DNA of 54,237 nucleotides from IMG/VR virus record IMGVR_UViG_3300046169_000074, positions 1 through 54,237 of that record; one strand, written 5' to 3'. Under the pieces are notes generated by a model. It was not told where the DNA came from. It saw nothing but the letters and a program-made list of their open reading frames with translations, and did no database searches. The position numbers and the translations under genes are program-made. Shown piece after piece: positions 5,839-30,705 of the stretch; positions within the stretch are counted from its first letter, which is position 1; the number at the start of each line of letters is the position of its first letter. The stretch comes from a virus. Its lineage: Duplodnaviria > Caudoviricetes.

Positions 5839-5913
5839 ATGAAAAGAAAAGTTGAAATAAGTAAACTACTATATGTAGTAATAATGATCGTGGCTTACGC
5901 TGTATCGATCTAA
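5839..5913 (+). CDS. 24-aa hydrophobic peptide MKRKVEISKLLYVVIMIVAYAVSI
   Basis: ATG..TAA read by hand; basic N-terminus plus TM-like stretch; stop overlaps the nrdA stop. Confidence 0.45.
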   Translation: MKRKVEISKLLYVVIMIVAYAVSI

Positions 5914-7536
5914 CCTTCGCAAGAAGAACACTCTAGTATATTCCTACTAAATGCTTGTGCAGAGCTTTTACTAAATTGATAGTATAAAGTTTTAACACCT
6001 TCCTTCCAAGCATATAAATACAACTGATTAATATCTTTAGCTGGTACACTAGGATCTATCATTAAGTTTAGGCTTTGTGATTGATCTATATACTTCTGTC
6101 TTTGAGCAGCTTGTAATACTATTTCTTTAGGTGATATTTCTACAAACGACTTGAAAACTTCTTTAGTCGGAAAATTTAAATGCTGAACCGAACCATCCTT
6201 GTTTAGTATATCCTCCCAAACTTCATCTGTATTCAAACCATACTTATCTAGCTCACACTCTAAAAAGGGGTTTTTATATACTGTTTTAGACTTAGCTAAA
6301 TCCTTTACAAAGTAATTAGACTTGATAGGTTCAATACCCATACTAACTGCTCCGTGGATGAATGAGCTAGATTTAGTAGGTGCAATAGCCATTAATGTTG
6401 TGTTTGCAAAACCTTCGCGTATACATTCATATCCCTTGTATTCAGAGAGCCATTTAGAAGCCGTCTCTGATCGTTCTTTTATAGTCTTGAATATTTCATT
6501 GTTCAAAGCTTTAGCCTGCAGAGAATCAAAGTTTATTAACTTAGATTGAAACAGAGAATGGTAACCTAAAACTCCTACGCCAATAGCTCTATGCTGTGAA
6601 GCAAACCTATTAGCTCTAGCTAAACCAGGTAGCGTAGCAGATTTGACAATGAACTCATCTAAAACAGCATTTAAAAACTGAGTATATACCTCAATAGCGT
6701 CAGTGCTTTTAATTTCATCCCAGTGTAACAGGTTAATAGAACCTAAACAACACACGAAAGAGTTGAAGCTATCAGTTGGCAACTGTATTTCAGAGCATAA
6801 GTTTGAAGCTGTAATATCTAAACCTAACTCTTTGTAAGGTGAGTTATTATTAGAGTTGTCTTTAAACATTATGTATGGAAAACCAAACTCAGATCTTCGC
6901 TGAATTATCTTAGCCCAAACTTCTCTCTTCTTTTTACTACCCTTAGACATACTCTGCATCCATTCATCTGTAACGGTGATACCGTATTGTAGATTTTGAA
7001 TAGGGTTTCCTTCTGTACCAATATCCAGAAACTCTAATATATCAGCATGTTCAACAGGTAGATATACAGCACAAGCACCTCTTCTAGCCTCAGCTTGCTT
7101 AGCAAACATCGACAGTGGTATCGTACATACGAGCATAATGAACAGGTCCGTCAGCTTTACCACCAGTTGAAATAACTGTACCTCGTGGTCTTATATTTCC
7201 TAAATAAGCTGATGTTCCTCCTCCATATTTAGACATCATACCGATCTCCCTAGATGCATTTAGAATTGAATCAAGATTGTCATCAATGTTAGATCCGTAA
7301 CAACTAATTGGTAAACCTTTATTTTTACCAAAGTTTATCCACACAGGAGTAGACAAGGAGTAAAAACCCCTTGCCATATAGTCTTCAAACTTCTGAGCGA
7401 ATCCATCTATCTTTAAATGTTTCTCAGCTGTGTTAGCTATATCTTTAATTCTTTGTTCTGGTGTCTCGGTTATGTAACCTCTAGACAAGAACAGCCTGGA
7501 CTCATCATTGAGCCAATAATATTTCTTTCGTTCCAT
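5910..7536 (-). CDS. nrdA: Ribonucleotide reductase class I alpha subunit (one extra base near 7101)
   Basis: PISC, GGGTS, RRGA, SNLCSEI, CCLGS, AIAPTKSS, IDQSQSLN, KTLYY, C-terminal CSSCEG; the two ORFs join if one base is removed. Confidence 0.92.
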
Positions 7537-8519
7537 TAAAATAAATCGTCTGCGGTTATACTTTTACTTTTCTTATTGTAATCAACTGATTTTTTATAGA
7601 AGAAATCACCTTCTTTAGTAGCTGTAATCTCAACATCAAACCACTTAGTTTGTTCAAGGGCTTTTTTATCAACTTCAAACACAGAATCATATCCTATTTT
7701 TTCTAGTGAATTATTGAATCTATTTTTAATAAATTCCTTAATAGTATCTTTACTTAGGAAGCTAAGCTCTCCAGCTTCAAATATCCAGTCTAATACATCG
7801 CACTCAGCTTTATAAGCTTTAGCACATGCTGATTCAATGAGTTGTTTAAAGTCCTCATCAAACCACTCTGGATTTTCTGATCTTATTATATTTATAATTT
7901 CAGCACCAAAGTTACCGTGTATTTCCTCTTCTTTAGATGTTGCTTCAACTACGTTAGATATACCCTTTAGTACATTATTATTCTTATTGAAAGACATCAT
8001 AATCAAAAACTGACTAAACAAGCTAACGTGTTCTATAAATAAAGAAAACAACAATACCGACTTAGTGTACATCTTGTTATCTCTAGATCTAGTACCGTCT
8101 AAGTATTTAGTTAGGTATTTTATCCTAGCTTCAATAGCAGGTACATCAACAACTGTTTTAAATTCTTCTTCTAAACCTAGTATCCTAATCAACCTAGCAT
8201 AAGCATCCTTATGTCTAACTTCAGATTCTGCAAATGTCATACCTACATCACCAACCTCAGTGATAGGCATTCGCTTATACATATCAGCCCAAAATGTTTT
8301 AACACTAACTTCTATCTGAGCTATCGATAACATAGTCTTCTTAATTATATCTCGTTCTTGTTCAGATATATTAACCTTGAAGTCTTGTACATCGTCAGTA
8401 AAATTAAACTCAGTATCAATCCAATACGAGTGTCTTATAGCATCTTTGTAATCAAGTAGTTGTGGATATTGATACGGTAATATGTTAACTCTTTTTTCAA
8501 ATATATTATTCTTCTTCAT
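7536..8519 (-). CDS. nrdB: Ribonucleotide reductase class I beta subunit
   Basis: ESEVRHKDAY, EHVSLFSQF, EEEIH diiron motifs, DFF; likely start MKKNN. Confidence 0.92.
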   Translation of the reverse strand: MKKNNIFEKRVNILPYQYPQLLDYKDAIRHSYWIDTEFNFTDDVQDFKVNISEQERDIIKKTMLSIAQIEVSVKTFWADMYKRMPITEVGDVGMTFAESEVRHKDAYARLIRILGLEEEFKTVVDVPAIEARIKYLTKYLDGTRSRDNKMYTKSVLLFSLFIEHVSLFSQFLIMMSFNKNNNVLKGISNVVEATSKEEEIHGNFGAEIINIIRSENPEWFDEDFKQLIESACAKAYKAECDVLDWIFEAGELSFLSKDTIKEFIKNRFNNSLEKIGYDSVFEVDKKALEQTKWFDVEITATKEGDFFYKKSVDYNKKSKSITADDLF

Positions 8520-8667
8520 CGTAGAATTGTTCAATTGTTAAACAAACATCTACGAATGGTAAATAAAATACGTGATTAGATAATTGAGACTCTTCAGTCT
8601 CTGTGTTGTAACTTCTAAACCCTAATAGTATACCAGGGTATAAACCTAATGTCAATGTCCAATTCAT
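8506..8667 (-). CDS. 53-aa hypothetical protein
   Basis: MNWTLTLGLYPGILLGFRSY...YLPFVDV read by hand; fills the gap in the operon. Confidence 0.6.
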   Translation of the reverse strand: MNWTLTLGLYPGILLGFRSYNTETEESQLSNHVFYLPFVDVCLTIEQFYDEEE

Positions 8668-8668
8668 A

Positions 8669-9118
8669 TTACTTTCTTTTTTGTTTAATTAATTCTATAA
8701 CTAAGTCGCATTCCTTTTGGTTTTGAGGCTTGTATAAAGTTACATGTTTCATTTTATGGTTTACATATTTTTTAAACATCTTCCAACGCAAAGGAAAACT
8801 TTCGTTTGCTCGACCTTTAGTTTCTATTACAAAGTCATGGCTAATGAAATCAGGTGTATATTTAATAGGTAGTATTTTTTTACAACCCCTATTTACTAAA
8901 TCGCCTTTACCATTAGCTTGGCGTTCGTAACTTTCTACTTCAAACTCAAAACTTTCTTGCAATGTAAATGTACAACCTTCGTAGTCAGCTTTTATACCAG
9001 CTTCTTTAAGAGCTTTGTACATATACTTTTCTAAGCCAGAAGCGAAGGTGATGCCATCATACACCACCTTCTTAGCTCTTACTGGGCCTTTACGTTTAAC
9101 TCGCTTTTTCATCCGCAA
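8669..9118 (-). CDS. T7 endonuclease I-like Holliday junction resolvase
   Basis: FASGLE, YTPDF, VIETKG (PD-(D/E)xK). Confidence 0.8.
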   Translation of the reverse strand: MRMKKRVKRKGPVRAKKVVYDGITFASGLEKYMYKALKEAGIKADYEGCTFTLQESFEFEVESYERQANGKGDLVNRGCKKILPIKYTPDFISHDFVIETKGRANESFPLRWKMFKKYVNHKMKHVTLYKPQNQKECDLVIELIKQKRK

Positions 9119-9395
9119 ACTTATCTAGCTTCAACATTTCTTCAGCTATTGATTCTTTAGCTGATTGAAGATATAATATAGCATCCATTAATTCTTCTTG
9201 TACATCATTTAGATAACCGAATAAGTCTTTATGACCACCAGCTCTTTCGTCATTAAGAGTTCTACCATACTTTTGAAAACCTACATCAGATCGTTCTACA
9301 AACTTATCACATACGTTTCTTACTACTGGGTCTCTAAATTTATACATTTTAGATTCTACTGCATCCATACTGTCGTATATTTCTCTGCTACTCAT
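9096..9395 (-). CDS. Putative all-alpha NTP pyrophosphohydrolase-like protein
   Basis: GFQKYGRTL...VQEELMDAILY (EExxD). Confidence 0.5.
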   Translation of the reverse strand: MSSREIYDSMDAVESKMYKFRDPVVRNVCDKFVERSDVGFQKYGRTLNDERAGGHKDLFGYLNDVQEELMDAILYLQSAKESIAEEMLKLDKFADEKAS

Positions 9396-10195
9396 AAAGA
9401 TTGTTTTACAAAAGTTCCATTAATCATTTTACCTTTCCTGTTTTTAATTTCAGCATAAGCCGCATCAATACATCTCTCGATAGAAGTCTCGGTCATGTGA
9501 GCTAGGTTGGTTAACACTACAACCATATCGCCTATAGCATCAATGATTTCTGCACGATCTTCCTTTAACAAAGCACTACCAAGCTCTCCAGCTTCTTCCA
9601 TTAACTTTAGATACTGTGTTTTAGCATTACCTTCATTGTACAAACCTCTTTCGTGAGCCCATTCACGTATCATAGTAAATCTTAAAGCTTCAGCTTGAGG
9701 TACTTTAACTAGGTCATCAAAGTTCTTAGATTGATCTGACCACGAACCTAGTTTTTTATTGTAAACAAAACACCTATTTTCATTGTAATAAGATGGTTTA
9801 ACATTACTCATTATCCAGTCTACACTTTTAGGTGATAGGACTACGTCACCATATTCAGTACTCCATTCCATACCTATGTTATCAAGCAATTGTCCTTTAA
9901 GCTTGCTCACTGGGCAAGGGAACGTAGTAGTTTGTTCAGTTATATTAATATCCATACTATTTAATTTGGTTTTATTAGGTTTTAAATCTTTATAAGGTGT
10001 TGTATCAACTCTATACCCATATTCTTTTTGAAGATCAATCTCACGCTTAGATATGTAATGCATGTCTTTAGACACGTCTAATATCTCGTACTCATGAGCT
10101 TCGTAACCTTGTTGGTCTGTAACTCTACGTTGTAAATTTTTAGTTACACCAATCTTCTTGCCGGGTATGTGGTAAATGTAATAATTAGGTTCCAT
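9392..10195 (-). CDS. N-terminal GIY-YIG-like domain fused to C-terminal MazG-like pyrophosphatase
   Basis: YYIYHIPGKKIGVTKNLQRR...RE; QYLKLMEEAGEL...IIDAIGDMVVVL; likely start MEPNY. Confidence 0.7.
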   Translation of the reverse strand: MEPNYYIYHIPGKKIGVTKNLQRRVTDQQGYEAHEYEILDVSKDMHYISKREIDLQKEYGYRVDTTPYKDLKPNKTKLNSMDINITEQTTTFPCPVSKLKGQLLDNIGMEWSTEYGDVVLSPKSVDWIMSNVKPSYYNENRCFVYNKKLGSWSDQSKNFDDLVKVPQAEALRFTMIREWAHERGLYNEGNAKTQYLKLMEEAGELGSALLKEDRAEIIDAIGDMVVVLTNLAHMTETSIERCIDAAYAEIKNRKGKMINGTFVKQSL

Positions 10196-10841
10196 AGTTA
10201 GGTAGTTTATTGTTATACAAATGTAAATTATGAGCGTGGTGGTAGTACCAACCAGTATCAATATTCAGTCTCTCTGCAACTATTTTTTGTAGTCGTGAAA
10301 ATTGGTATTGATCATTACAAAAGCCGTACCAGAGATCGTTAGAACGCATGTATACAGACATACAGAGCTTATTATCTACAATTGTAAACTGAACAGCATA
10401 AGTACATGGTGTATCGTTATCGTATAACTCGTGCTCTTTAGCGTCATATATACTTATAGCTGCTTGCCTAGTGTCTTTTTCATACTTTAGCTTATTAACT
10501 ACATATTCCAACTGTTTATTTCTACTCCACTGCCAACCATAGTTTGAGTTCACACAGCCGTCGGTGTCTGCCATATGATTCCATATATCAGGAACTTTAC
10601 CATATAATTCACCGAGCTTTTTTATGTTATTATCTCCAGATAAATACCATAACCACTCAGCCTCAGCATAATCTATACTCCATTTACGGTCTTTATTTGT
10701 TATCTCTCTCAACATTGGATTATCTAAGTAAAACCCCACGTTGAATAATGCTTTAGTATCACCGAAATTAACACCTTGTTCTATTATCAAGCTGTGGTAA
10801 AACTCGTAAGCATCATTTGCTGTTTTAAAGTGTCTAGTCAT
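10185..10841 (-). CDS. Thymidylate-synthase-superfamily enzyme, dCMP hydroxymethylase-like
   Basis: NSNYGW, catalytic PC, MRSNDLWYGFCND with Asp at the position of the ThyA dUMP-specifying Asn, NLHLY. Confidence 0.75.
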   Translation of the reverse strand: MTRHFKTANDAYEFYHSLIIEQGVNFGDTKALFNVGFYLDNPMLREITNKDRKWSIDYAEAEWLWYLSGDNNIKKLGELYGKVPDIWNHMADTDGCVNSNYGWQWSRNKQLEYVVNKLKYEKDTRQAAISIYDAKEHELYDNDTPCTYAVQFTIVDNKLCMSVYMRSNDLWYGFCNDQYQFSRLQKIVAERLNIDTGWYYHHAHNLHLYNNKLPNYGT

Positions 10842-11088
10842 TGTGTTTTTTATAATAATATTTGCAATATTCATACATTTTAGCTAAAGCTTCTAGACCA
10901 GTGTATCTATTAGGATCTTCTGTAACCTTGTCTTTAATAGTTATTTCAACTATCCAAGCTTGATCGTCTGACCAATCAGGTATAACAGCTATCCATATTC
11001 CATTTAATCTACACCAACCAAAGTGCTTAGCCATTTCATCTGATTGAACTAAGAAACCTGGGTTTCTACCTTTTACCTTTTTAGGCAT
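10834..11088 (-). CDS. Hypothetical protein
   Basis: 84-aa ORF overlapping both neighbours. Confidence 0.6.
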   Translation of the reverse strand: MPKKVKGRNPGFLVQSDEMAKHFGWCRLNGIWIAVIPDWSDDQAWIVEITIKDKVTEDPNRYTGLEALAKMYEYCKYYYKKHND

Positions 11089-12803
11089 TATTCCCAGGGT
11101 AAAGCTTCGTTCTCAACGACGTCGGCAGCTAGTGGTATATAACTACCTGACTTAGGTTCCCATGTGAAATGTGATTCAGCACCATTTTCACCTAAGTTCT
11201 GGAATTTAACCTTGAGAACTTTAGCTTTAACAGTTTTGAGTTCATAATCTCTGTGGATAAGCAACCCGTGATAACTAGCATCGTACCATTCACCACCACC
11301 TTTAATGTTATACATAGTTGGTTCTTCAATTTTTCCATCTTTGTCTTTATACATTTTAGTTGGATGAGCTACTATAATAACTAACACATCATACTTTTTA
11401 GCAAACGTTTCAATCTTAGTTAGATATTCCATAGTATACCTATTAACATCTTCGGTTTTACAATTTAAATCTCTAACTTTATTAAACGGATCGATAACTA
11501 AACATTTAATACCTTTACGTTTTACTAACTCAGCACCTTTAGTTAATACATCTTCTAATGTATATCTATCCATATCAATGAAAAAGTAATTATCATCTAT
11601 ATGATCAGTAACATTATTCCACTTTTCAGAGCCTATGTCAGAAGTTGTAGGTAAACCCTCCCAGGTTTTACGTATTAACTTATGTGCGTGCAAATAATTA
11701 GGTTTGTTTTCGGGTGATGCAAAAGCTGTCTTCCATCCATAGTTTTTATTGTAGCCAATACACATTTGATCTACAAAATCTGATTTACCAGATGATGGTA
11801 TACCCGTTACAGTTATAAACTGTGATGTATATGTAGAGAATATTTTATCAAAATTCTCTAAACCAACTTGGTAACCAGGTTTAAAACCATTATGAACAAA
11901 GTCTAATAAATCATTTTCAAGATCGCGTAAAGTAGATACACCTTCTAAAGGTACTTGAGTAGCAGTGTTTATAACACTTCTAAGTTTCTCTTTACCGTGT
12001 TTGATTAAATAATCATTAGCATCTTTAACATCTCCGAAATCTACTAAGTAACAAACCTCAGCGCCTAACCTGCGTATAAACTCTTGCTTAAGAGCTTGAC
12101 CAGGTTCGTCAGCATCAACGGCTAGTATAATCTTTTCTTTATCTTCTAGATAGTCAATACAATTATCTAGGTAGTCAAGATTATTACTATTTAACGTTGC
12201 ACCGTTAGGTACTGAAACTACATTTTGTATACCAGCTTCGTGCAAAGCTAGAACATCCATTTCGCCTTCGACAATAACACAAGAATTATAACCTACAATA
12301 CTATTAATATTGTAGAATATTTTCTCAGCACCTTTGTATAGCTTAAAGTTTTTACGACCATCTCTATATTTTACGTTGATCAACTCATCACCCATAAAAT
12401 AATTAAACTGTATCGCATTTTCTTTTTGTCCTGTTTGAGGCATAAACTCAGGACCTTCAGTGACACCTAACTCATCTAAAGTACTTAAGGAAATACCACG
12501 ATCTGAAAACCATTCTTGAACTTTAGTTTGTACTTGCTTGTACTCACCATCTGGTTGAACAGGTCGTATGTATTCCTTCGTACTATTACCCTTTCGTTTG
12601 TATGTATGCAACTGAAAACTACTATCACAATTGTGACAAGTACCGAGACCACGTTCCCAATCGTAAGAAGCACATTTTGCTTTACGATTTTCGGGTTTCC
12701 TATCAGCGGAGCACAAAGGACAAGTCCCCTGTGTCTTACCCGCTTCTAAGCCATATTGATTGAAATCGTCAATCAAAAATCCATTGATCTCTACTGTTTC
12801 CAT
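11088..12803 (-). CDS. T7 gp4/Twinkle-like primase-helicase
   Basis: CPLC..CHNC zinc finger, TOPRIM EGEMD and DAD, Walker A GIPSSGKS, LVIDP, VAHP. Confidence 0.92.
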   Translation of the reverse strand: METVEINGFLIDDFNQYGLEAGKTQGTCPLCSADRKPENRKAKCASYDWERGLGTCHNCDSSFQLHTYKRKGNSTKEYIRPVQPDGEYKQVQTKVQEWFSDRGISLSTLDELGVTEGPEFMPQTGQKENAIQFNYFMGDELINVKYRDGRKNFKLYKGAEKIFYNINSIVGYNSCVIVEGEMDVLALHEAGIQNVVSVPNGATLNSNNLDYLDNCIDYLEDKEKIILAVDADEPGQALKQEFIRRLGAEVCYLVDFGDVKDANDYLIKHGKEKLRSVINTATQVPLEGVSTLRDLENDLLDFVHNGFKPGYQVGLENFDKIFSTYTSQFITVTGIPSSGKSDFVDQMCIGYNKNYGWKTAFASPENKPNYLHAHKLIRKTWEGLPTTSDIGSEKWNNVTDHIDDNYFFIDMDRYTLEDVLTKGAELVKRKGIKCLVIDPFNKVRDLNCKTEDVNRYTMEYLTKIETFAKKYDVLVIIVAHPTKMYKDKDGKIEEPTMYNIKGGGEWYDASYHGLLIHRDYELKTVKAKVLKVKFQNLGENGAESHFTWEPKSGSYIPLAADVVENEALPWE

Positions 12804-12811
12804 CTATTTAA

Positions 12812-13120
12812 TTAAAATGGTAAGTCATCTTCTTGAACCGCGGCTTTTTGAGGCGCTGGTGCTTGACCATCTCTAGGTGCTGTAGCAACATTATCACCGT
12901 TAGTCCATACAACACGTACGTTACCTAAGTAAGTTTTAGCTGCTTTAGCCTCACGTTCTTCTTTGGTTTGCTCTACGCATACAGGGCCTTGATTACCGAA
13001 CTGATCAGGCTCATCGTTTAATGTAACTGTAATAGGTAGGTACTTACCTTTTTTACCGTTAATGATTTTGTCTTTAGGAATCTCATTGAGATTAATTGAC
13101 GTTTTAATAATACTTGCCAT
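12812..13120 (-). CDS. Single-stranded DNA-binding protein
   Basis: Acidic C-terminal EDDLPF tail; adjacent to the helicase. Confidence 0.7.
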   Translation of the reverse strand: MASIIKTSINLNEIPKDKIINGKKGKYLPITVTLNDEPDQFGNQGPVCVEQTKEEREAKAAKTYLGNVRVVWTNGDNVATAPRDGQAPAPQKAAVQEDDLPF

Positions 13121-13123
13121 ACT

Positions 13124-13369
13124 CTACTGTTTAATTAAGGTTACTAAATTTCTAACTTGTTCTACCGACGCACCCGTTGATCGTCTGAAGTTATCAAACT
13201 TTTTGTGATAAGGATGAAGTCCGTTACGTGAGTTTCTATTCATATAGAAGTTGTCACTGTTTGCTTTGTACTTGTTGCCTGAAATAGAACAGGTCATCAT
13301 TTTTGCTCTTGCCATTGGTTTTGGGTTTAAGAGATTAATAAAAAATTGACTTATTGATTGTTTATTCAT
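13124..13369 (-). CDS. Hypothetical protein
   Basis: 81-aa ORF directly after a class I motif. Confidence 0.6.
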   Translation of the reverse strand: MNKQSISQFFINLLNPKPMARAKMMTCSISGNKYKANSDNFYMNRNSRNGLHPYHKKFDNFRRSTGASVEQVRNLVTLIKQ

Positions 13370-13372
13370 ATA

Positions 13373-13407
13373 TATAATATCTTTAGGTAATCGTATTTAT
13401 ATTGTAA
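13373..13407 (-). promoter_or_regulatory. Class I promoter-like motif (ACRA-N7-ACGA-N8-AGATATTAT)
   Basis: TTACAATATAAATACGA-TTACCTAA-AGATATTATA. Confidence 0.75.
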
Positions 13408-14053
13408 TTAGTATTTTAAGGCTTTACTAATCAAAGGAAACTGATCTTTAAATATACTTTTAGCTTCCTTAGCAACTAACTGTATTTCTTTCTGAGCATG
13501 CTCGTCATCTCTAAGCTGTAGGAAGTGTATCCAACTTCTAATACTACCAGTCATAAATATTTTAGTTTTAGTAGTCAGCGGTAGTATCATCCTAGCTTGC
13601 TCTCTAGCTACGCCAGCGTTTAATAATTCTACATATAAAGATTTTATAGCGCCCAACATACCGTTTATAACTTCATTAGCGTTAGTTGTAGCGTGAAACC
13701 TTATAGTAGGATTAAATACCTCCGTAGATGACTGCCTATTGTCATCACACTGCTTACGTAACTCTATAGGTTCAAACATTTCATCTAACTTGTTTACATC
13801 TTGGTATCGTTGACTAAACTCTTGAAATGTAAATGATCGATGTCTTATAAGCTGTATACCTATTGCTTTGCTAGTATTTATTTCTAATGTTAAGTAGCTA
13901 TGCTCGAAAGGGGCTGAAGTGCTTATGATTGATTAAATAATTTATAAGACCCTCTGGTTTAGCTTTCTTATCCTTACGACTACTACTAACTCTAGCTATT
14001 TCGACTATATTATCTTCAGCGTTAGGTGTAACTGATTGTAGTTTCACATTCAT
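13408..14053 (-). CDS. thyx: Flavin-dependent thymidylate synthase (one extra base near 13910)
   Basis: HFSPFEH, RHRSFTFQEFSQRY (RHRx7S), EQARMILP, HAQKEI; span is 646 nt = 3n+1. Confidence 0.9.
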
Positions 14054-14055
14054 AG

Positions 14056-14788
14056 CTATAATGTTTTAGTTAGTAAATATTGATTTGTATCGAAGTCTTC
14101 TGTCTTGTAAAACAAGTCGTAAGCATCACTAGCTTTACGTACTTTATCTTCGCCCTGACCTATAAAAGCTATCTGAACAGTCAAATAAACCTACTTGATG
14201 AGTGTTTTTATCTATAACTATAAATATCATTTCGTAACCAAACAACTTATTATAAATATAAGCTTGACTATCGTAGTTGTATTTAGACGCAGACCATTTA
14301 AACTTATCTATATCACTGGTAGTTTTAAGATCAATAACTAATTGCTCTTCGTGGTTAATTATATCAGCCTTACCCTTCCATTTATTTCCGAATATCTCTG
14401 TAACAGCTGGCTCTTCGTATGTCACGTCACCTAGTAGTGGTCGTATAAGATCTTTACAAACATCGTTACTCATCACAGCATCCATCATCAACTCTATATT
14501 ATCAACCTCGTGTTGTAATAGACAAACTTCACCACCAGAAAGTTCTTTATATACTTTAGTATTACGAGTTGAAGCTTCGATGATTTTAAAACTCTTTAGT
14601 TTATCAGGTTCTAATATAGCCGTATGGAAATAACCTCCGACAGCAAACGCTGGATTATTACCTTTAGGTTTATTAAGCTCTTTAGGGTTTTTTAGTAAGG
14701 CACTTATGTTTGAATTACTTAAAAACTGTTGACCAAACTCTCCGTAGTAATGCTCATCATCTCTTAATTTGTCTATAATATCCTTCAT
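14056..14788 (-). CDS. RecE/PD-(D/E)xK-like exonuclease (one extra base near 14153)
   Basis: LSNS, GGYFH, KGKAD, IDLKTT, YDSQAYIY; reading continues to TAG at 14056 in the shifted frame. Confidence 0.8.
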
Positions 14789-14789
14789 A

Positions 14790-15320
14790 CTAGTTCTTTA
14801 GTTTCTTACGTTGATCAGCTGTTACAGCGTATTTAGCTTCTATAGCAGCAATATCACCACCACCTTTAACAAACTCTATTGCTTTAGCTAATTGATCATT
14901 AGTCATCTTCTTTTTAGCTGGCTTGCTATCGTGTTTGTTGGTAGCGTCTGCATCCTCAGTATCATCAATTAAGAATAGGTTACCTAAAGCGTATTTTTTA
15001 CCGTAAGTAGATGCGGCACCAAATTGCTGAGACGTTTGCATACCTTTTTGATTAAGGTCTACACCGACTATTGCTGTTGCTGTAATTGAGTTTTCGCCAT
15101 CTGATATTGTGGCTGTAGATTGCATCATTGGTACAGGGTCAACGCTAATGATTTCTTCATTAACTGTTACGTACACATTATGCTTTACTAGGAACGGTTT
15201 TACCGCTTCGAGGATGTCTTCAGCTTTACGGAAGTAGTACTTACCGAAGCTATTGTACGAAGACTTTTTAGCTTTTAATTCAGTCTGAACGACTGCTAAA
15301 GTTTTGGTTAATTTAGTCAT
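14790..15320 (-). CDS. ERF-family single-strand annealing protein
   Basis: EDILEAVKP, QQFGAASTYGKKYALGNLFLIDDTEDAD. Confidence 0.85.
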   Translation of the reverse strand: MTKLTKTLAVVQTELKAKKSSYNSFGKYYFRKAEDILEAVKPFLVKHNVYVTVNEEIISVDPVPMMQSTATISDGENSITATAIVGVDLNQKGMQTSQQFGAASTYGKKYALGNLFLIDDTEDADATNKHDSKPAKKKMTNDQLAKAIEFVKGGGDIAAIEAKYAVTADQRKKLKN

Positions 15321-15344
15321 TGGCTTTTGGTTTATCGGTACCTA

Positions 15345-15372
15345 TATAATCACATATAAGGCCCCTAATTTA
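15345..15372 (-). promoter_or_regulatory. Class II promoter-like motif
   Basis: TAAA-N15-GTGATTATA between sigma and ERF genes. Confidence 0.6.
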
Positions 15373-15392
15373 ACATTTATTTTTAACTTAAA

Positions 15393-16148
15393 CTACAGGT
15401 AATCAACCACTTGCGAGTGCGGTACATTATCTATTAATTTGTCTATAGCTTGCTTTTTTAACTGTGAAACACGTACGTAAGAGCTAGTACCTTTAATACC
15501 TAAAACTTCAGCTATCTCTTTAGCGGAATACTTACTACAGTCTAAACCGTAAGATAATCTCAATACTTGATATTCTTTAGGGTTTAAATGCTCCATCATT
15601 ATACTTTTTAAGTATGCTAGCAATATATCTTTATTATATTCTTTAGCATTATCAGGTATATCATTAAAAGTGTTATTATCATCAGTATTATTATCTAAGC
15701 TTAAAAACACCGAATTAAAAAACAAGGCAACCATTTTTTTATCCTCACCGAAATCTTTACGTATTTCGTTTAGTTTATGCTCTGGTATACGCATAGTACC
15801 TCTATTCATATCAATAGCTCTTCGTATTGCACCACGTATACGTTTTGCTAAAAAAGATTTTAGTCTTTGTTCTTGATCTTCGGCTTCGCATATAGTATTC
15901 CAGTTGATTCTATCAACAGCTTGTATTAAACCTAAATTACCTTCTTGTATAAGATCATTTATAGTCATAACACCTGAAGCTTGTTGAGCTGTGGAAAACT
16001 TACGTGCTAAATTCTCTACCAAAGGTAAAAACTTAACTATAAGTTGATCTCTAGTGTATTCATGAAACTCTCTACGAGGGAGAAGCTCAATACTTTCGCT
16101 TACATCATTTTTATATCTTAAATAATTTTGTATATTATATTTCTTCAC
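15393..16148 (-). CDS. Phage sigma70-family RNA polymerase sigma factor (group 3-like)
   Basis: LPLVENLARKF, DLIQEGNLGLIQAVDR, RIRGAI, MRIP, region 4 KEIAEVLG...RVSQLKKQAIDKL. Confidence 0.9.
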   Translation of the reverse strand: MKKYNIQNYLRYKNDVSESIELLPRREFHEYTRDQLIVKFLPLVENLARKFSTAQQASGVMTINDLIQEGNLGLIQAVDRINWNTICEAEDQEQRLKSFLAKRIRGAIRRAIDMNRGTMRIPEHKLNEIRKDFGEDKKMVALFFNSVFLSLDNNTDDNNTFNDIPDNAKEYNKDILLAYLKSIMMEHLNPKEYQVLRLSYGLDCSKYSAKEIAEVLGIKGTSSYVRVSQLKKQAIDKLIDNVPHSQVVDYL

Positions 16149-16783
16149 AATGTTCCATTTAATAGTTCTTTTTCTCTTTTTAATTCGTTACATATATTAC
16201 GATGAATTGTACGTGTAGAACAGTCTAATAAACTTGCTAGACGGCTTATCGTGATCTTTTTTCCCATATCGTTAATATCTATCATACATTGATAAATATC
16301 ATCAGGATGGATCCGTTTTTGACGACCTATTAAACCACCTACTATACTTAACTTTTCAGCTTTATCGATACCTATACCTTGTTTAAATATAACCTTACGT
16401 AGTTTATTCTTAGGTGGAGCATCAAGATCAGACATGTAAACGTCATGTATAATTCTATCTAACGATGCTTCAGATATTGTAAAGGTACAAAAACCATTTG
16501 ACTTATCAGCTATAAATTCCGATAAATCTGTAAAATCATCTGTAGTCAACCTAGGATTTAAATACCAAAGCACTAATAAGTGCCATTTTAAACTCTTAAA
16601 AGTATTTATCTTTGCCTTGCTTTTAAATAAATCATAAGCAGAATATGTACCGTCAGCGTAAAACCAATATTGATTTGTTTCTATAGTAGGTTCTTCTAGA
16701 CTTGTATTTGGGTCTAACCTAGTTATAATTCTTTTACGATGTAACCATTCAAAATTCCTTGATATATTTAAGTTTTGTGACAT
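16145..16783 (-). CDS. Protein with C-terminal helix-turn-helix (regulator or replication initiator)
   Basis: KITISRLASLLDCSTRTIHR; overlaps the sigma start. Confidence 0.65.
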   Translation of the reverse strand: MSQNLNISRNFEWLHRKRIITRLDPNTSLEEPTIETNQYWFYADGTYSAYDLFKSKAKINTFKSLKWHLLVLWYLNPRLTTDDFTDLSEFIADKSNGFCTFTISEASLDRIIHDVYMSDLDAPPKNKLRKVIFKQGIGIDKAEKLSIVGGLIGRQKRIHPDDIYQCMIDINDMGKKITISRLASLLDCSTRTIHRNICNELKREKELLNGTL

Positions 16784-16821
16784 TAGCCAGTTACTATATT
16801 ATTAATTAGGCTTTTGTCACA
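16776..16821. repeat. 46-bp palindromic site, copy 1 (inverted relative to copies 2 and 3)
   Basis: TGTGACAttaGCCAGTTACTatattaTTAATTAGGCtttTGTCACA; covers the HTH gene ATG. Confidence 0.85.
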
Positions 16822-16903
16822 GTCGGAGTGTAACGTTGCAATGATAATCCGCTTAGAATCATCACCTTGAGGATATTTAATTTTATTAAATTCCTCTATT
16901 TTC

Positions 16904-17374
16904 TTAATTAGGTCTTCTTTCATAAATAGTTTCTTTATTAGGGTTTGCAACTGTATTTTTTTCGCCTATGTAATAATTCCAATAAGCCTCAACACTACAT
17001 TCAGCTTTATACTCATCAGGCATACACTGAGGTGGTTGTGTTAATAATTCCATTGGTATACCTTTAGGTATTTGCCATAAGTGCTTACATTTAGTTATAG
17101 ATAAATGCTCTTTACCGTATCTATTTCTATATTCCTCACCTAAGCCCATCATATGTCTGTATAACCAAGAATAGTTACTAGCATTCTCACGCGTCCATTT
17201 TGTTGAAGGGTGATTATAATGCGCTTTCTTATAAGGTATATCTACACTACTTTCATAATGATGATGTGCAGTACATAGCATTTGTGCAGATTCTAAGATC
17301 ATTTTAACTACATGCTTATTATATTGTAGCCTCGCAGCTTCAAACGGATCTTCATCTAAGTAAAATATATTCAT
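16904..17374 (-). CDS. Pyrimidine-dimer DNA glycosylase (DenV-like) family protein
   Basis: MNIFYLD, KHVVKMILESAQML, HPSTKW, EYRNRYGKEH, QCMP. Confidence 0.75.
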   Translation of the reverse strand: MNIFYLDEDPFEAARLQYNKHVVKMILESAQMLCTAHHHYESSVDIPYKKAHYNHPSTKWTRENASNYSWLYRHMMGLGEEYRNRYGKEHLSITKCKHLWQIPKGIPMELLTQPPQCMPDEYKAECSVEAYWNYYIGEKNTVANPNKETIYERRPN

Positions 17375-17535
17375 TCGTTCCAGCGTTTTATTATGTTAAT
17401 AACTATGAAGGCGTTAGCAATAATAGCTTGTAGAACTATAATTGTTCTAAATATAGCTACTCTATCAGCTTCTTTGTTAGTTTTACCACTTTTTTCACCA
17501 AGGGCTCTAGCCCAATGTCTCCATAAGTATCTCAA
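17371..17535 (-). CDS. 54-aa membrane peptide
   Basis: TTG start, WRHWARALGEKSGKTNKEAD followed by a hydrophobic stretch. Confidence 0.55.
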   Translation of the reverse strand: MRYLWRHWARALGEKSGKTNKEADRVAIFRTIIVLQAIIANAFIVINIIKRWNE

Positions 17536-17643
17536 TCTTCATATATTTTGTCTAACAGTTGTACAGCAACTCTTAGAGTTATTTTTTCTTCTTCGTATAG
17601 TTTTTGAACTAATTTACTTATCTTCATACGCTTTATTTGACTT

Positions 17644-18546
17644 TTATTCATAATCTCGTATACATTTAAACAAAGGGTGTCGGTAACTACCAGCTTTAGT
17701 ACGTTCGAAGTACGTAAAGGTAGCTGTTTTACCAATCCATTTTTGCATTTGTTTGAAATTTGTTTGTAACTTTTTGAAATTATCCATTACAGGCATACCA
17801 AATTCAATACCGTTAGCATCAATAGCTAGAAATTTACCGATAGTACCAGTTCGTTTACCTTTACCTTCAACCCAGCCAACTATTTCAGCTTCAGAGTCAT
17901 GGAAGTCTTTGAATTTACGTAAACTATGAGATCGTTTAGACTGATACTCAGAGTTAGTACGTAATATAGAACCTTCGTAACCTTTAGCTAAGTTAGACCC
18001 GTGTAGTTGTTTTGCAAACTTTTCAGCCCATACTTCGTGAGTTTCAACGTGTTTTACACAATAAGACTCTGTTAAATTCAACTTAACCCACTCGTCACGT
18101 AGATCAAACTTACCTGACCAGTGTTCAGATTTAGCGAAACGATCTGATAATATAGCATCGTAACAGTGGAACTGAACTAGGTTTTTAGATTCTATTCTGT
18201 GATCCATTGTAGGTTTAGTTTTACGCACACAAGATATAATCTTTTCAAAGTCATCTTTTAGATCGTGGTTGTACAATTCACCGTCAAGAACTACATCTGG
18301 GTTACATTCAAAGAACCATTGTAAACTTTCAAGTATGTGCCGTATGTTTTTCCACTCTTTACCAGTACGTGAATAAGCTTTAATAACAGTACCTAAAACT
18401 ACTGGGTCGTACTCAGCTTGTATTAAGCAACGTACGCCATCAAGCTTTGGTTGAATGAAGTTTTTAGTTTTATAATCTATTGGTTTTTTACTTACCGGGT
18501 AAGCTAGCATTGGTTTATGTCTCATCATCTTGTTCTCCTTCTTCAT
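17644..18546 (-). CDS. ATP-dependent DNA ligase
   Basis: PMLA, QPKLDGVR, LDGELY, YEGSILR, KFKDF. Confidence 0.92.
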   Translation of the reverse strand: MKKENKMMRHKPMLAYPVSKKPIDYKTKNFIQPKLDGVRCLIQAEYDPVVLGTVIKAYSRTGKEWKNIRHILESLQWFFECNPDVVLDGELYNHDLKDDFEKIISCVRKTKPTMDHRIESKNLVQFHCYDAILSDRFAKSEHWSGKFDLRDEWVKLNLTESYCVKHVETHEVWAEKFAKQLHGSNLAKGYEGSILRTNSEYQSKRSHSLRKFKDFHDSEAEIVGWVEGKGKRTGTIGKFLAIDANGIEFGMPVMDNFKKLQTNFKQMQKWIGKTATFTYFERTKAGSYRHPLFKCIRDYE

Positions 18547-18799
18547 TTGGTTTGTTAAATTCTTCAGTTATATTAAGTTTATCAGTTAATTTTTCTATTT
18601 TAATCTTCATTACAGCACATTTTTCATACTCTTCACGATCTAGGTATATGTTTTGTAATGTAACACATCTAGCTAACTCACCTACCATATGATCTCTACT
18701 GTCATGGGTAAGCCAGTCTTCGCCAGATGTCATCATAGCTTTTTTTATCAAGGCATCAGCTACGTATACGCCTAGTTTTTCTAAGTCTTCGTTCGTCAT
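18515..18799 (-). CDS. Hypothetical protein with UVR-like motif
   Basis: EEYEKCAVMKIKI. Confidence 0.55.
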   Translation of the reverse strand: MTNEDLEKLGVYVADALIKKAMMTSGEDWLTHDSRDHMVGELARCVTLQNIYLDREEYEKCAVMKIKIEKLTDKLNITEEFNKPNEEGEQDDET

Positions 18800-18802
18800 A
18801 TA

Positions 18803-18837
18803 TATAATATCTACATCAATTCGTATTTAGATCGTAA
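18803..18837 (-). promoter_or_regulatory. Class I promoter-like motif
   Basis: TTACGATCTAAATACGA-ATTGATGT-AGATATTATA. Confidence 0.75.
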
Positions 18838-19254
18838 TTTATCTGGTTTACCTACAAATAAACAGGTTTTACCTTCAAATATACTAACCCAGAACTCTTC
18901 ACAACCAGGTTTAACCCATATATAGTATACAAAATCAACCCACAACTTCGTTGTTTCTGACTCTAGTATTATTTTAGAGCTAAACTTTTGGTTTTCTAAG
19001 TACTTTATTAAGTTTATTGGAACTCTAGTTATAACATACTCATCAGTATCTTCTAAAAACTTAGCTAATTCAACACCTAAGTAAGCAGGGAAACCATCAT
19101 AATGTCTATATATTTGATAGGTTTCAGGCTTTTTAGGTCTTTCACTGAACGAAATACCTGGTTCTCGCTTAGCAAATCTTATTATTCCTTTAGTCGACAT
19201 ATTTACCTTTTTTATAGCCAAATGAGAATATTTGATCATTATCAAGCATTTCAT
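18811..19254 (-). CDS. Hypothetical phage protein
   Basis: YRHYDGFPAYLG motif; true start may be MSTKG. Confidence 0.6.
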   Translation of the reverse strand: MKCLIMIKYSHLAIKKVNMSTKGIIRFAKREPGISFSERPKKPETYQIYRHYDGFPAYLGVELAKFLEDTDEYVITRVPINLIKYLENQKFSSKIILESETTKLWVDFVYYIWVKPGCEEFWVSIFEGKTCLFVGKPDKLRSKYELM

Positions 19255-19365
19255 TTAGAAATTTATACTCATTAGTTAACCTTGGTCTAATACAGTACTT
19301 CGTTGAGTAAATTACTTCTTCTGAATGAGCTCTTTCAGTATAAAAAAACTGTACTAAATACTTTT

Positions 19366-19677
19366 TCATACTTCAAAATCTTCAACGTTAGCACCCATTT
19401 TCTTTAACATATCTACAACTGTACCTGGTAATTCAAACATACCATCATAATCAGTCAGTAGCTCACTAGAGAACCATAAACCACCCTCAGCGTAGTAGTC
19501 GTTACCTCCGCTCTCTTCGTCGTAAAGCTCAAATCCGCCGTTTTCATTGTCTTTATCCCACCATACCTCGTAATTCATAGTTTTACTCTCTGGCTTAGTT
19601 CCATTAAATGACGTTTGGTAATTAACATACTCAACTTCCTTGCGTTTTTCACTTAAAATATTAGATTGTTTTTCCAT
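19366..19677 (-). CDS. Hypothetical acidic protein
   Basis: 103-aa ORF, YAEGGLWF...DYDGMFELP. Confidence 0.6.
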   Translation of the reverse strand: MEKQSNILSEKRKEVEYVNYQTSFNGTKPESKTMNYEVWWDKDNENGGFELYDEESGGNDYYAEGGLWFSSELLTDYDGMFELPGTVVDMLKKMGANVEDFEV

Positions 19678-19990
19678 AATTGTCTTTGTAAATAGGTATT
19701 TGAGTTCTATACCTTTTGATTCTACTTAATTTTTCAGCTTCTGCTTTTGCGATGTTCTCTTGCTTGATCTTTTGTTTGTTGCGTTTGAAGTCTATTTGCT
19801 CTTGAATTAGATCTGAGTTGTAATACTTTTTAACTTTATCGAGCCTCCATTGTACATCTCCGATCTCTTCGATGATCTCTGGCGTTAAATCTTTGCTAGA
19901 CTTGTTAAGTTGTTGCGTTATAACTGTAGCTAACTCTAGAAGTTCTTCAACTAGTTTTTGATGATCTTTTAAGTTTTTACCTATATCCAT
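19661..19990 (-). CDS. MazG-like pyrophosphatase domain protein
   Basis: KLVEELLEL...IIEEIGDV. Confidence 0.6.
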   Translation of the reverse strand: MDIGKNLKDHQKLVEELLELATVITQQLNKSSKDLTPEIIEEIGDVQWRLDKVKKYYNSDLIQEQIDFKRNKQKIKQENIAKAEAEKLSRIKRYRTQIPIYKDNYGKTI

Positions 19991-20080
19991 TACTCATCCG
20001 ATGTGTTATAAGCTACTATACATATAATTCCGACACTAAGTGCTGTAGCTATCATTAATAATAAGTGCATAATTTTCTGT

Positions 20081-20272
20081 TTAAAGGTTTGCTTTTTTAA
20101 TAAAGTGATTCGCTACTTGTGGTATATGCTCTTTGTAATACGGTTGCTCATCTTTACACCACATACGTACCTCGTCTTTTGTTTTAAATGTTTGGTAAGG
20201 AAACGTCACTTCCAGACTTTCAATAAAGTCAGACACGTGCCAACCTTCCCAAATGTGTTTATCGTTTTTCAT
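20081..20272 (-). CDS. Hypothetical protein
   Basis: 63-aa ORF with A-rich leader after tRNA-like element A. Confidence 0.6.
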   Translation of the reverse strand: MKNDKHIWEGWHVSDFIESLEVTFPYQTFKTKDEVRMWCKDEQPYYKEHIPQVANHFIKKANL

Positions 20273-20285
20273 AGTTTTATTTATT

Positions 20286-20387
20286 TAGTGCTCAAGGGTG
20301 GATTCGAACCACCACTTCCAATTACTACTTCCGTATCTACCCGCTTAGTTCATAGTTGTAGCGCTCTATCATATCAGAGTCTTGAGC
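20286..20387 (-). ncRNA. tRNA-like element A with expanded anticodon loop
   Basis: Acceptor GCTCAAG/CTTGAGC, D-like CTCT/AGAG, GCTAC/GTAGT stem around about 29 nt, T arm GGTGG-TTCGAAT-CCACC, 3' ACTA. Confidence 0.65.
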
Positions 20388-20470
20388 CGTAAGCCTTATT
20401 TCTTCTCCATTAGACAGGATTATATAGGGACCTGAATTGCGAACCTTAAAGTTTGCTTACGTAACGTTTG

Positions 20471-20617
20471 CTGTAGGGGAAGGACTCGAACCTCCACGTA
20501 GCGGTTAGCTATAGGACAAGTTGTGCACAATGGTGGTCAACCCGCTATCCTAAAGTTTATTCCGTGATCTACACCCCCGAGACAGGAGGGCACGTCTGCC
20601 AATTTCGTCACCCTACA
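20471..20617 (-). ncRNA. tRNA-like element B: GTC anticodon, Leu-type D arm, about 78-nt variable arm
   Basis: Acceptor TGTAGGG/CCCTACA, ACG-AAATTGGCAGA-CGT, CCCTC-CTGTCTC-GGGGG, GGAGG-TTCGAGT-CCTTC. Confidence 0.75.
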
Positions 20618-20755
20618 ATTAGCTTAGAATAAACCTATCTTTTTACTAATTCCTCTTGAATTTCGTTTGTATCTTTCATAATTTTACTTTATTTTGCTTA
20701 ACTTCTACTGCCGCTATAACGAATACAGCGATTATACCTGCTATATAGTATGACA

Positions 20756-21031
20756 TTAGTCTAGTAACACCATATAAGCTTCCGCATTATTATGTCTAAA
20801 CCAGTCTAAACCTCTTCGAAGATCTTTGACAGCTTCATTATACGAGTCTGTATGTGGATTCATACGTTCAGTCCACATAGTAGCACCCATCACCATATCG
20901 TATATAGATAGTTCTATTGCGTTTAGCTTTATACTTTCTCTACTAAATGGGTTTGTACATACTGCACCTTCTGTATAAACCTCACCGTTGAACCATTTAG
21001 GTACTTTTTGTTCTTTAGTATTAGTCTTCAT
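20756..21031 (-). CDS. Hypothetical protein
   Basis: 91-aa ORF in the early cluster. Confidence 0.6.
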   Translation of the reverse strand: MKTNTKEQKVPKWFNGEVYTEGAVCTNPFSRESIKLNAIELSIYDMVMGATMWTERMNPHTDSYNEAVKDLRRGLDWFRHNNAEAYMVLLD

Positions 21032-21407
21032 TTTCTATTGAGCTTATAATTTGTAAGTGGTTGTCTAATATATTGCTTTGTATTCTATTCGCTAAGCTTT
21101 CTACAAGATAGCTTTCAACGTTGTAACTATCTACATTTATAGTGTTGTCGTAGTCAATGCTTAATTCTACGTTAATATCATCGCTGCTTAAGCTATCTAA
21201 CTCTGATTCAACGGTTTCGTAAATACAATCTTGTATCTCATCCCACTGCTTATCAGTCATAGATGGTTTATTAGCTAGTTTTAAGTCTTTATGAAGGTTA
21301 TCACTAAGCTGTTTAGCTGCGCCTAACTGTGTAGCTAAGTCTCTTATTACTTCGTCTTGTTGAGTTATTTTAAGCTCTAACTCATCAGCTGTTTTACTCT
21401 TGTACAT
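21021..21407 (-). CDS. Hypothetical coiled-coil/acidic protein
   Basis: 128-aa ORF overlapping neighbours. Confidence 0.6.
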   Translation of the reverse strand: MYKSKTADELELKITQQDEVIRDLATQLGAAKQLSDNLHKDLKLANKPSMTDKQWDEIQDCIYETVESELDSLSSDDINVELSIDYDNTINVDSYNVESYLVESLANRIQSNILDNHLQIISSIENED

Positions 21408-21591
21408 ATGTTAATCCTTTATAGTTAATCCATTCTTCAACGCCTGGCGTGTCTTGGTAGTCAATGCAACCGAAGTTGTTAGGTGTGTTACCAACCTCGT
21501 AAGGTCGCCATTTAGTAGTATAAACTATACCAGCTATCTCGTTGGTTACTAGCATTCTACCGGTTTCTTTGTTAATTTTTAGTGTCTGCAT
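21394..21591 (-). CDS. Hypothetical protein
   Basis: 65-aa ORF downstream of a class I motif. Confidence 0.6.
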   Translation of the reverse strand: MQTLKINKETGRMLVTNEIAGIVYTTKWRPYEVGNTPNNFGCIDYQDTPGVEEWINYKGLTYVQE

Positions 21592-21606
21592 TTGTTTTTC
21601 GTTTAT

Positions 21607-21641
21607 TATAATATCTTTGAGTGGTCGTATTTATATTGTAT
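21607..21641 (-). promoter_or_regulatory. Class I promoter-like motif
   Basis: ATACAATATAAATACGA-CCACTCAA-AGATATTATA. Confidence 0.75.
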
Positions 21642-21642
21642 A

Positions 21643-30491: not shown

Positions 30492-30705
30492 TGTTATAAG
30501 AAAAATAACTATTGGTAAGGATTATAAAAACGATTCTATGCACTACGCTATAGGTCAAGGTGTTTATGGTGGTCATACGATATGTCATATATTAGAAGAC
30601 GAGTATAAGTACTCGATATACATATCTAAAGGTGATATAGTTATACCTTGGAAAGACTTTAATAAAAACATGGCTGTGTCTGTAGAATATGACTTAGAGT
30701 ACTAA
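30481..30705 (+). CDS. Hypothetical protein
   Basis: IRKITIGKDYKNDSMHY. Confidence 0.65.
   Translation: MTNSVIRKITIGKDYKNDSMHYAIGQGVYGGHTICHILEDEYKYSIYISKGDIVIPWKDFNKNMAVSVEYDLEY

Follow-up and report, generated by a model that had tools for sequence, protein, structure and literature searches.

Virus record IMGVR_UViG_3300046169_000074 of IMG/VR (Duplodnaviria; Caudoviricetes) is a linear record of 54,237 bases, which we analysed over its whole length (hereafter, the window). Within a minus-strand gene block at 5910–22218, three open reading frames (ORFs) occupy the stretch from 9096 to 10841, where the initial annotation, made from the sequence alone, had placed a candidate cytosine-modification module. 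They encode a thymidylate synthase (TS) homologue, a protein that ends in a MazG-type pyrophosphohydrolase domain and a small conserved protein, and they follow one another with a 7-nt gap and then an ATGA overlap:

10185–10841, minus strand: TS-fold enzyme of 218 amino acids, predicted deoxycytidine monophosphate (dCMP) 5-hydroxymethylase (PF00303, T4 gp42-like signature, structure-database matches)
9392–10195, minus strand: three-domain protein of 267 amino acids, counted from the methionine of MEPNYY (MazG/PRA-PH profiles, AlphaFold2 (AF2) model, Foldseek)
9096–9395, minus strand: orf99, a conserved protein of 99 amino acids, with an ATGA shared between its start codon and the MazG stop codon; found in 72 of 80 related loci

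The best overall explanation, which we hold with moderate confidence, is a predicted dCMP hydroxymethylase and MazG cassette that is T4-like in outline. This is a known phage strategy in pared-down form; its unusual features are that the enzyme is trimmed, that MazG is part of a fusion protein and that no kinase or polymerase encoded by the phage was found.

A hydroxymethylase-type active site

The ORF of the TS homologue spans 10185–10874 (minus strand), and its likely start is the second methionine, at 10841, which gives the 218 residues found in the protein collection. The sequence, which includes VNSNYGWQW and YMRSNDLWYGFCNDQ, matches Pfam Thymidylat_synt (PF00303; E = 6e-26, 91.6 bits, cut-off 24.3). 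Profile matches in the PDB are led by MilA (4.4e-23), followed by a ThyA (5.3e-17) and T4 gp42 (3.9e-15). The motifs quoted in the initial annotation, including NSNYGW, are present where it had placed them, and T4 gp42 does share them, reading INSNYGW and MRSNDVVFGFRND.

The catalytic cysteine lies in DTPCT, aligns with C146 of E. coli ThyA and C148 of T4 gp42, and does not vary within the alignment. As had been proposed, an aspartate occupies the position of E. coli N177: the final Asp of RSNDLWYGFCND aligns to N177 and to T4 D179 with both HMMER and MAFFT. A second aspartate, three residues before the cysteine (D-T-P-C), stands at the position of T4 D145 and E. coli L143, and the Ser-x-Tyr pair (T4 S94 and Y96) sits in NSNYGW. 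Overall, the TS homologue is identical to T4 gp42 at 13 of 14 catalytic or specificity sites: at T4 E60, S94, N95, Y96, R123, R124, D145, C148, T149, S169, D171, D179, H216 and Y218 it has E, S, N, Y, R, Q, D, C, T, S, D, D, H and Y, the sole mismatch being Gln at R124. The deoxyribose-type residues Ser167 and Arg126' are also present (in RSND and TRQ in the alignment).

Published residue rules give these positions meaning. Replacement of N177 by Asp is reported to mark a preference for dCMP, replacement of L143 by Asp or Glu to accompany hydroxymethyl products, and replacement of D169 by Asn to mark the newly found 5-hydroxy-dCMP synthases (NAR 2026, PMC13326640). In T4 gp42, D145, S94 and Y96 position the waters required for hydration, the D145N mutant loses hydroxymethylase activity, and an Asp three before the Cys together with Ser-x-Tyr has been proposed as the hydroxymethylase signature (PMC6400193). 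In MetaGPA, positions 177 and 147 separate modified from unmodified viral contigs best, through Asp at the former and a residue other than His at the latter (eLife 2021, PMC8670742); at these two sites the TS homologue has Asp177 and Thr147.

As alignment controls we used E. coli ThyA, T4 gp42, RB69 gp48, PaMx74_52, SPO1 gp29, PaMx11_51 and a Kuttervirus homologue, all from annotated records. All of them agree with the published rules. E. coli ThyA has L143, H147 and N177; RB69 gp48, a 5-hydroxy-dCMP synthase, has Asn at 169; and the 5-methyl-dCMP synthase PaMx74_52, the sole dCMP methyltransferase example compared, has Asn143, Pro147 and Ala-Ala-Tyr in place of Ser-x-Tyr. SPO1 gp29, PaMx11_51 and the Kuttervirus homologue (taken to be a dUMP hydroxymethylase, in line with its alignment signature) have D/N/N at 143/147/177, in three of three cases. 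The active-site residues and the behaviour of the controls thus support a dCMP hydroxymethylase, and dCMP 5-hydroxymethylation is probably the activity of the TS homologue. The same residues speak against a dTMP synthase, a dUMP hydroxymethylase and a 5-hydroxy-dCMP synthase and, less firmly, against a 5-methyl-dCMP synthase.

Close homologues are named 'thymidylate synthase' in databases and the relatives described below possess no other thymidylate synthase, both of which favour an enzyme that uses uracil nucleotides, either an ordinary dTMP synthase or a dUMP hydroxymethylase. That assignment is nevertheless very improbable. Position 177 is Asp rather than Asn, L143 is replaced by Asp and H147 by Thr, and the 55 C-terminal residues are cut to 9. 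Every NCBIfam ThyA equivalog model scores far under its cut-off (42–73 bits against cut-offs of 108–427; the best, 73 against 327), and the three aligned dUMP hydroxymethylases all have Asn177 and Asn147. The short tail in itself is not a defect, because RB69 gp48, which is active, has only 12 residues after H-x-Y, compared with 9 in the TS homologue, 28 in T4 gp42 and 55 in ThyA.

The likeness to RB69 gp48 extends further, as both this enzyme and DLP3 gp80 are short TS homologues that combine Asp177 with an acidic side chain at 143 and a truncated tail (PMC13326640), the tail of RB69 gp48 being similar in length. An enzyme of their flavin- and O2-dependent type would make 5-hydroxy-dCMP, with 5-hydroxycytosine serving as a handle for glycosylation. 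However, the window and all 59 relatives examined have Asp where the published rule asks for the diagnostic Asn169 (PMC13326640), and no glycosyltransferase or sugar-nucleotide genes were recognized in Pfam or PHROG scans of window ORFs of at least 100 amino acids; we give this alternative very little weight.

If the TS homologue were instead a dCMP methyltransferase, like those of Xanthomonas phage Xp12 and Pseudomonas phage PaMx74, the result would be 5-methylcytosine (5mC) DNA, the second of the two products that the initial annotation had allowed. Such an enzyme would share Asp177, and in PaMx74, which has 5mC, a pyrophosphohydrolase likewise adjoins the TS homologue; moreover, a ThyA N177D mutant methylates dCMP (cited in PMC8670742). 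Against it, Asp143 and Ser-x-Tyr are T4-like, unlike the residues of PaMx74_52 given above, and the D145N substitution abolishes hydroxymethylase activity in T4 (PMC6400193). The PaMx74 gene is accompanied by a dCMP deaminase and DHFR, neither of which was found here, and hydride transfer seems unlikely without the ThyA C-terminal tail. Of the two products, then, the 5-hydroxymethylcytosine (5hmC) type of active site held up, and 5mC is improbable.

Conservation of the cassette

Among candidate stretches of IMG/VR, 522 of 527 encode a relative; we kept the best 80 loci, counted neighbours within 8 kb, and scored residue conservation in the 59 that give a full TS ORF. S94, Y96, D145, C148, D171 and D179 are kept in all 59. 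A full-database search returned 7,726 clusters at E ≤ 0.001, of which 40 reached E ≤ 1e-30; D/T/D/D at 143/147/169/177 is found in 104 of 124 cluster representatives of at least 190 amino acids, and the S/Y/D/D signature in 84 of 122. Runs from 11 public studies, catalogued as seawater, marine or viral metagenomes, contain the stretch 9000–14100. If the assignment is correct, thousands of 'thymidylate synthase' entries would be mis-named, as this was the sole name given among at least 8,000 scored candidates at E ≤ 1e-5.

Neighbours of the TS gene in the 80 loci are as follows:

MazG protein, following the TS gene: 77 of 80
orf99: 72 of 80
primase-helicase: 72 of 80
DUF1064 protein: 71 of 80
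ribonucleotide reductase beta subunit: 62 of 80
thyX: 0 of 80

Co-occurrence of TS and PRA-PH domains, often only on cytosine-modified viral contigs, has been reported in MetaGPA (PMC8670742).

The MazG fusion protein and orf99

In the AF2 model, the 267-residue protein has three domains (mean confidence score, pLDDT, 83.8). Domain 3 (residues ~170–267; ~9395–9688) carries EEAGE...EIIDAIGD and scores 23.0 bits with PF03819 (cut-off 22) and 22.5 with PF01503 (cut-off 21.3); MazG and PRA-PH were both matched in 26 of 26 aligned homologues. A profile search of the PDB placed it with 1vmg (E = 1.1e-7), and Foldseek gave probability 1.00 to the MazG-like enzyme of cyanophage S-2L, DCTPP1 and others, with whole-chain E values of 0.02–0.3. 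By profile, metal motif and predicted four-helix fold, domain 3 is a MazG-type, all-alpha nucleoside triphosphate (NTP) pyrophosphohydrolase. That it acts as a dCTPase is more tentative, being somewhat less likely than not.

Domain 1 (residues 1–66; ~9998–10195) is a GIY-YIG-clan-like domain of beta-beta-alpha-beta-alpha order, with weak but recurrent profile matches to T5orf172 (16 of 18), MUG113 (13 of 18) and GIY-YIG (3 of 18). A PDB profile search with this domain gave a chance match only (E = 0.86). Tyr8, Lys14/Gly16, Arg24 and Glu52 are invariant in 26 homologues, an arrangement that resembles the core of GIY-YIG nucleases. One GIY-YIG enzyme is T4 endonuclease II, which cleaves cytosine DNA. 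Domain 2 (residues ~85–160) is a conserved alpha/beta domain that matches no known family, and the whole-chain Foldseek search placed neither domain 1 nor domain 2.

The initial annotation had counted two NTP-pyrophosphatase-like genes after the TS gene. The first of these claims holds for the C-terminal domain of the fusion protein; the second, for orf99, does not. We found no Pfam match for orf99, no PDB profile match at E ≤ 10, an hhalign probability of 0.5% against the MazG protein, no Foldseek match for its model at E ≤ 0.001, and only viral hypothetical clusters in the ESM Atlas, and we reject it as a second pyrophosphatase. The AF2 model of orf99 is a two-helix hairpin (pLDDT 75) with an invariant QEE-x-MDA in the second helix. 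This QEELMDA helix resembles the EE-x-x-D helix of small MazG proteins (IQEELADV of 1vmg), over only 12 aligned columns. A predicted complex of the MazG fusion with orf99 scored 0.00 and 0.00, which is no evidence either way.

Proposed pathway

The sequences show the fold, the active-site residues, the order of the genes and how well these are kept; the substrate and product of the TS homologue and the substrate of the MazG domain are predictions. In the proposed reaction, the Cys of DTPCT would attack C6 of dCMP, the Asp at the N177-equivalent site would read and protonate the cytosine, and methylene-tetrahydrofolate would supply the one-carbon unit. Together with the serine and tyrosine of Ser-x-Tyr, the aspartate that precedes the Cys by three residues would position the water that hydrates the exocyclic methylene, so that 5-hydroxymethyl-dCMP (5hm-dCMP) and tetrahydrofolate (THF) would be produced, with neither hydride transfer nor dihydrofolate. 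The MazG-fold domain would most plausibly convert dCTP to dCMP and pyrophosphate, excluding plain cytosine from DNA while supplying the hydroxymethylase. In this phage, dTMP would be made separately by ThyX. Phosphorylation and incorporation of 5hm-dCMP would fall to host enzymes, as neither a kinase nor a polymerase of the phage was found.

A more far-reaching form of this proposal, speculative and on balance rather unlikely, is a minimal cytosine replacement with two or three genes: the trimmed dCMP hydroxymethylase, the GIY-YIG-like/MazG fusion and perhaps orf99. Host enzymes would phosphorylate and incorporate 5hm-dC, and the fusion protein would both remove dCTP and, with its GIY-YIG-like domain, cut unmodified host DNA, as T4 endonuclease II does. 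Were this so, 5hmC would be a common base of ocean viral DNA.

Gaps in the proposed pathway

Several observations weigh against the hydroxymethylase and MazG cassette as a route to modified DNA. A quick IQ-TREE analysis of 64 rows, more than half of whose forks (33 of 61) stayed open, placed the window clade (9 rows, SH-aLRT 99) apart from the T4 gp42 clade. A phylogeny with ThyA, gp42 and dUMP hydroxymethylases, suggested at the outset as a check, was thus run in rapid form and did not join the two. Membership accordingly rests on the active site rather than on the tree. The position of T4 R124, a phosphate ligand from the partner subunit in T4, is Gln or His in the window clade. The MazG family has no detectable sequence likeness to T4 gp56 (hhalign probability 1.5%), and hhalign found nothing significant between it and PaMx74_53. 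Furthermore, the cultured relative Elemovirus has a PRA-PH gene and no TS homologue, so a MazG protein need not be tied to cytosine modification: in Flavobacterium phage elemoF 6-3D (NC_055853.1), a stand-alone phosphoribosyl-ATP pyrophosphohydrolase (MazG-like) gene at 1–384 lies near genes for DUF1064 and a primase-helicase. Neither Elemovirus, which is related to the window by its large terminase (TerL), nor the spring phage described below has a TS homologue anywhere in its record.

The record itself is ~84% complete by CheckV. In the window and in four relatives that are at least 99% complete, we did not find DNA_pol_A, DNA_pol_B or dCMP deaminase, thymidylate-kinase or dNK-type kinases or AAA_28, or DHFR or carbamoyltransferase. 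The path from 5hm-dCMP to DNA in T4 requires gp1, and the window holds no candidate for a gp1-type step. The statement in the initial annotation that neither a dNMP kinase nor a glycosyltransferase is visible agrees with our scans of the window. In E. coli assays, a TS homologue without its kinase is reported to have yielded only traces of the modified base (PMC13326640). It is chiefly the missing kinase that separates the making of 5hm-dCMP from the presence of 5hmC in DNA. The lack of DHFR, for its part, fits enzymes that return THF, as the hydroxymethylase and ThyX would.

The same absences favour a different reading, in which the enzyme makes 5hm-dCMP or another modified cytosine nucleotide but little of it enters virion DNA; the enzyme could deplete or remodel the dCTP pool of the host, or have some other purpose, and the MazG domain would act in house-cleaning or pool balancing. 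The stand-alone PRA-PH gene of Elemovirus points the same way. So does the origin of the contigs in ordinary short-read runs (four of four), with summed depths of ~5 to 300, as a bulky modification that prevented library preparation would not be expected to allow such ready assembly. Plain 5hmC, however, does not hinder sequencing, and a drain on dCTP without replacement would hurt the replication of the phage itself. In addition, the characterized phage enzymes with this signature that are described in PMC13326640 and PMC6400193 all feed DNA synthesis, and host polymerases put 5hmdC and 5hodC into plasmids in E. coli assays (PMC13326640). We regard this reading as unlikely.

Since the searches turned up neither a phage polymerase or nucleotide kinase nor a deaminase, DHFR or carbamoyltransferase, incorporation into DNA is something that we infer, and the case for 5hmC or a derivative of it in virion DNA is evenly balanced. 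If it is there, a common marine phage group carries 5hmC, with consequences for restriction escape, for library bias in viromes and for readouts of cytosine modification in the environment. A clade with neither phage kinase nor phage polymerase would then also test the minimum needed for base replacement. The known picture of how such pathways work would be unchanged.

Comparison with known systems

T4 gp42 (PDB 1b49, 1b5e, 6a9a and 6a9b) has the same TS fold and shares the 13 sites listed above, including C148, D145, S94/Y96, D171 and D179; it differs in length (246 compared with 218 residues), in R124 and in overall sequence (~32% identity over 71% of the length). As with gp42 and the gp56 dCTPase, a nucleotide pyrophosphatase is encoded beside or near the enzyme and a separate dTMP synthase is encoded in the genome. 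Unlike gp56, the pyrophosphatase of the window is MazG-fold and fused to two extra domains, and a gp1-type kinase, a phage polymerase and a glucosyltransferase were not found in the window. The compact analogue of the T4 scheme that was initially suggested is thus borne out in its cytosine- and hydroxymethylase-type active site and in the MazG-fold gene that follows it, but it departs from T4 in the lack of detectable likeness between MazG and gp56.

MilA, the CMP 5-hydroxymethylase of Streptomyces rimofaciens (PDB 5jnh and 5b6d), is the best-scoring solved relative and has both Asp143 and Asp177. Its preference for ribose is tied to Ala176 and Lys133', where the window has Ser and Arg, as in deoxy-specific enzymes (PMC5175136). 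MilA is also longer (325–342 amino acids) and acts in antibiotic synthesis.

Modified viral contigs on which a TS is paired with a MazG-type pyrophosphatase have already been described in print. The MetaGPA contigs carry TS together with PRA-PH/MazG, and a further domain that MetaGPA found associated, DNA ligase, is likewise encoded in the window; in MetaGPA, however, the pair is tied to carbamoyltransferase and deaminase genes, which are absent in the window (PMC8670742).

The closest homologue from cultured phages is gp42 of Bacteroides phages BF503P2, BF486P2 and relatives (OP172667–OP172672), with 41.7–42.9% identity (E = 3e-45), an identical signature and a short tail. Unlike the window, these phages also encode an AAA_28 P-loop protein, dut, a second TS homologue and a carbamoyltransferase that belongs to a type with 5hmC as its substrate. 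In BF503P2 (OP172671.1), the region 6678–12708 encodes the carbamoyltransferase (Carbam_trans_N and C), the AAA_28 protein, a TS homologue, dut and the second TS homologue. Both TS homologues have Asp at 143 and 177, and the region is annotated only as hypothetical proteins or hydroxymethyltransferases; it is likely to be a pathway from 5hmC to 5-carbamoyloxymethylcytosine in a cultured gut phage. A literature search returned no publication on the marine clade of the window, which is not proof that none exists.

thyX and probable errors in the record

The separate thyX on which the initial annotation relied is indeed present, although its frame is split in the record at AGCCCCTTTCGAG:

13408–14053, minus strand: thyX, flavin-dependent thymidylate synthase, in two frames (PF02511 on both parts, 1.6e-5 and 8.6e-25)

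The second part contains the RHR...S.R-type motif of ThyX, RHRSFTFQEFSQRY. Contigs from four of four public runs (four studies) lack one base each at 13906/13907, 7102 and 14156, and a locus that is 97.9% identical over 5.2 kb (L009) also lacks base 7102. The extra bases split thyX (13906–13907) and the ribonucleotide reductase alpha gene (7102), and that at 14156 changes the 3' end of the exonuclease gene. Because removal of one base restores a single frame and independent contigs lack the extra bases, the breaks in thyX and the alpha gene are most likely errors of the record, and all three insertions probably arose in sequencing or assembly. The same contigs lead us to reject a programmed frameshift or pseudogene for either gene, and we reject an alternative genetic code as the breaks are changes of frame rather than in-frame stops.

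That thyX would make a second dTMP synthase redundant, and so point to another role for the TS homologue, proved a weak argument. No thyX was found in the 80 related loci or in five of five relatives that are at least 99% complete, and these keep the TS homologue, with exactly one PF00303 gene in each genome searched (five of five). In the window, thyX lies between orf81 and the exonuclease gene (13370–14143); the two genes are adjacent in relatives, with spacing shorter by ~670 bases (for example, in L010), which makes thyX look like a lineage-specific gain. As thyX is an extra of this lineage, and relatives without it retain the TS homologue, redundancy carries little weight. T4 itself encodes a TS alongside gp42. 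The active-site argument does not depend on thyX.

Phage and genome context

Two further features follow the cassette on the same strand:

8669–9118, minus strand: DUF1064, a Holliday-junction-resolvase-like nuclease (PF06356, E = 6.9e-11; phrog_190), directly downstream of the cassette; 71 of 80 loci
5910–8534, minus strand: class I ribonucleotide reductase (beta subunit 7536–8534, alpha subunit 5910–7536), after the cassette in 57–62 of 80 loci

All 87 matches of TerL in the phage collection are to phages of Flavobacterium (68), Cellulophaga (15, counted by genus only), Tenacibaculum and Maribacter and to one spring podovirus of ~60 kb. The gene set of the window (GroEL/ES, Erf, exonuclease, sigma factor, ligase and primase-helicase) parallels that of Elemovirus, and these sequence comparisons relate this uncultured marine phage to podoviruses of Flavobacterium and Cellulophaga. 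The label 'crAss-like' in the initial annotation found no support in our tests: the TerL matches fall in the groups just given, DNA_pol_A and DNA_pol_B were not found, and the sole PHROG match of the 2,111-residue ORF is 'virion structural protein'. Megablast of 9000–14000 against the phage collection returned no match.

GroEL and a GroES-like co-chaperonin are encoded at 27554–29119 and 30705–31286, as in Elemovirus and in Manatee Spring podovirus MW202828. GATATC, an EcoRV-type site, occurs 0 times in the window, where 17.0 would be expected (z = −5.1), and 130 times, compared with 277 expected, in 79 related loci (L010–L088), 37 of which have none. CATG is also scarce (ratio 0.65). The scarcity of GATATC suggests a restriction pressure that cytosine modification, if any, does not relieve.

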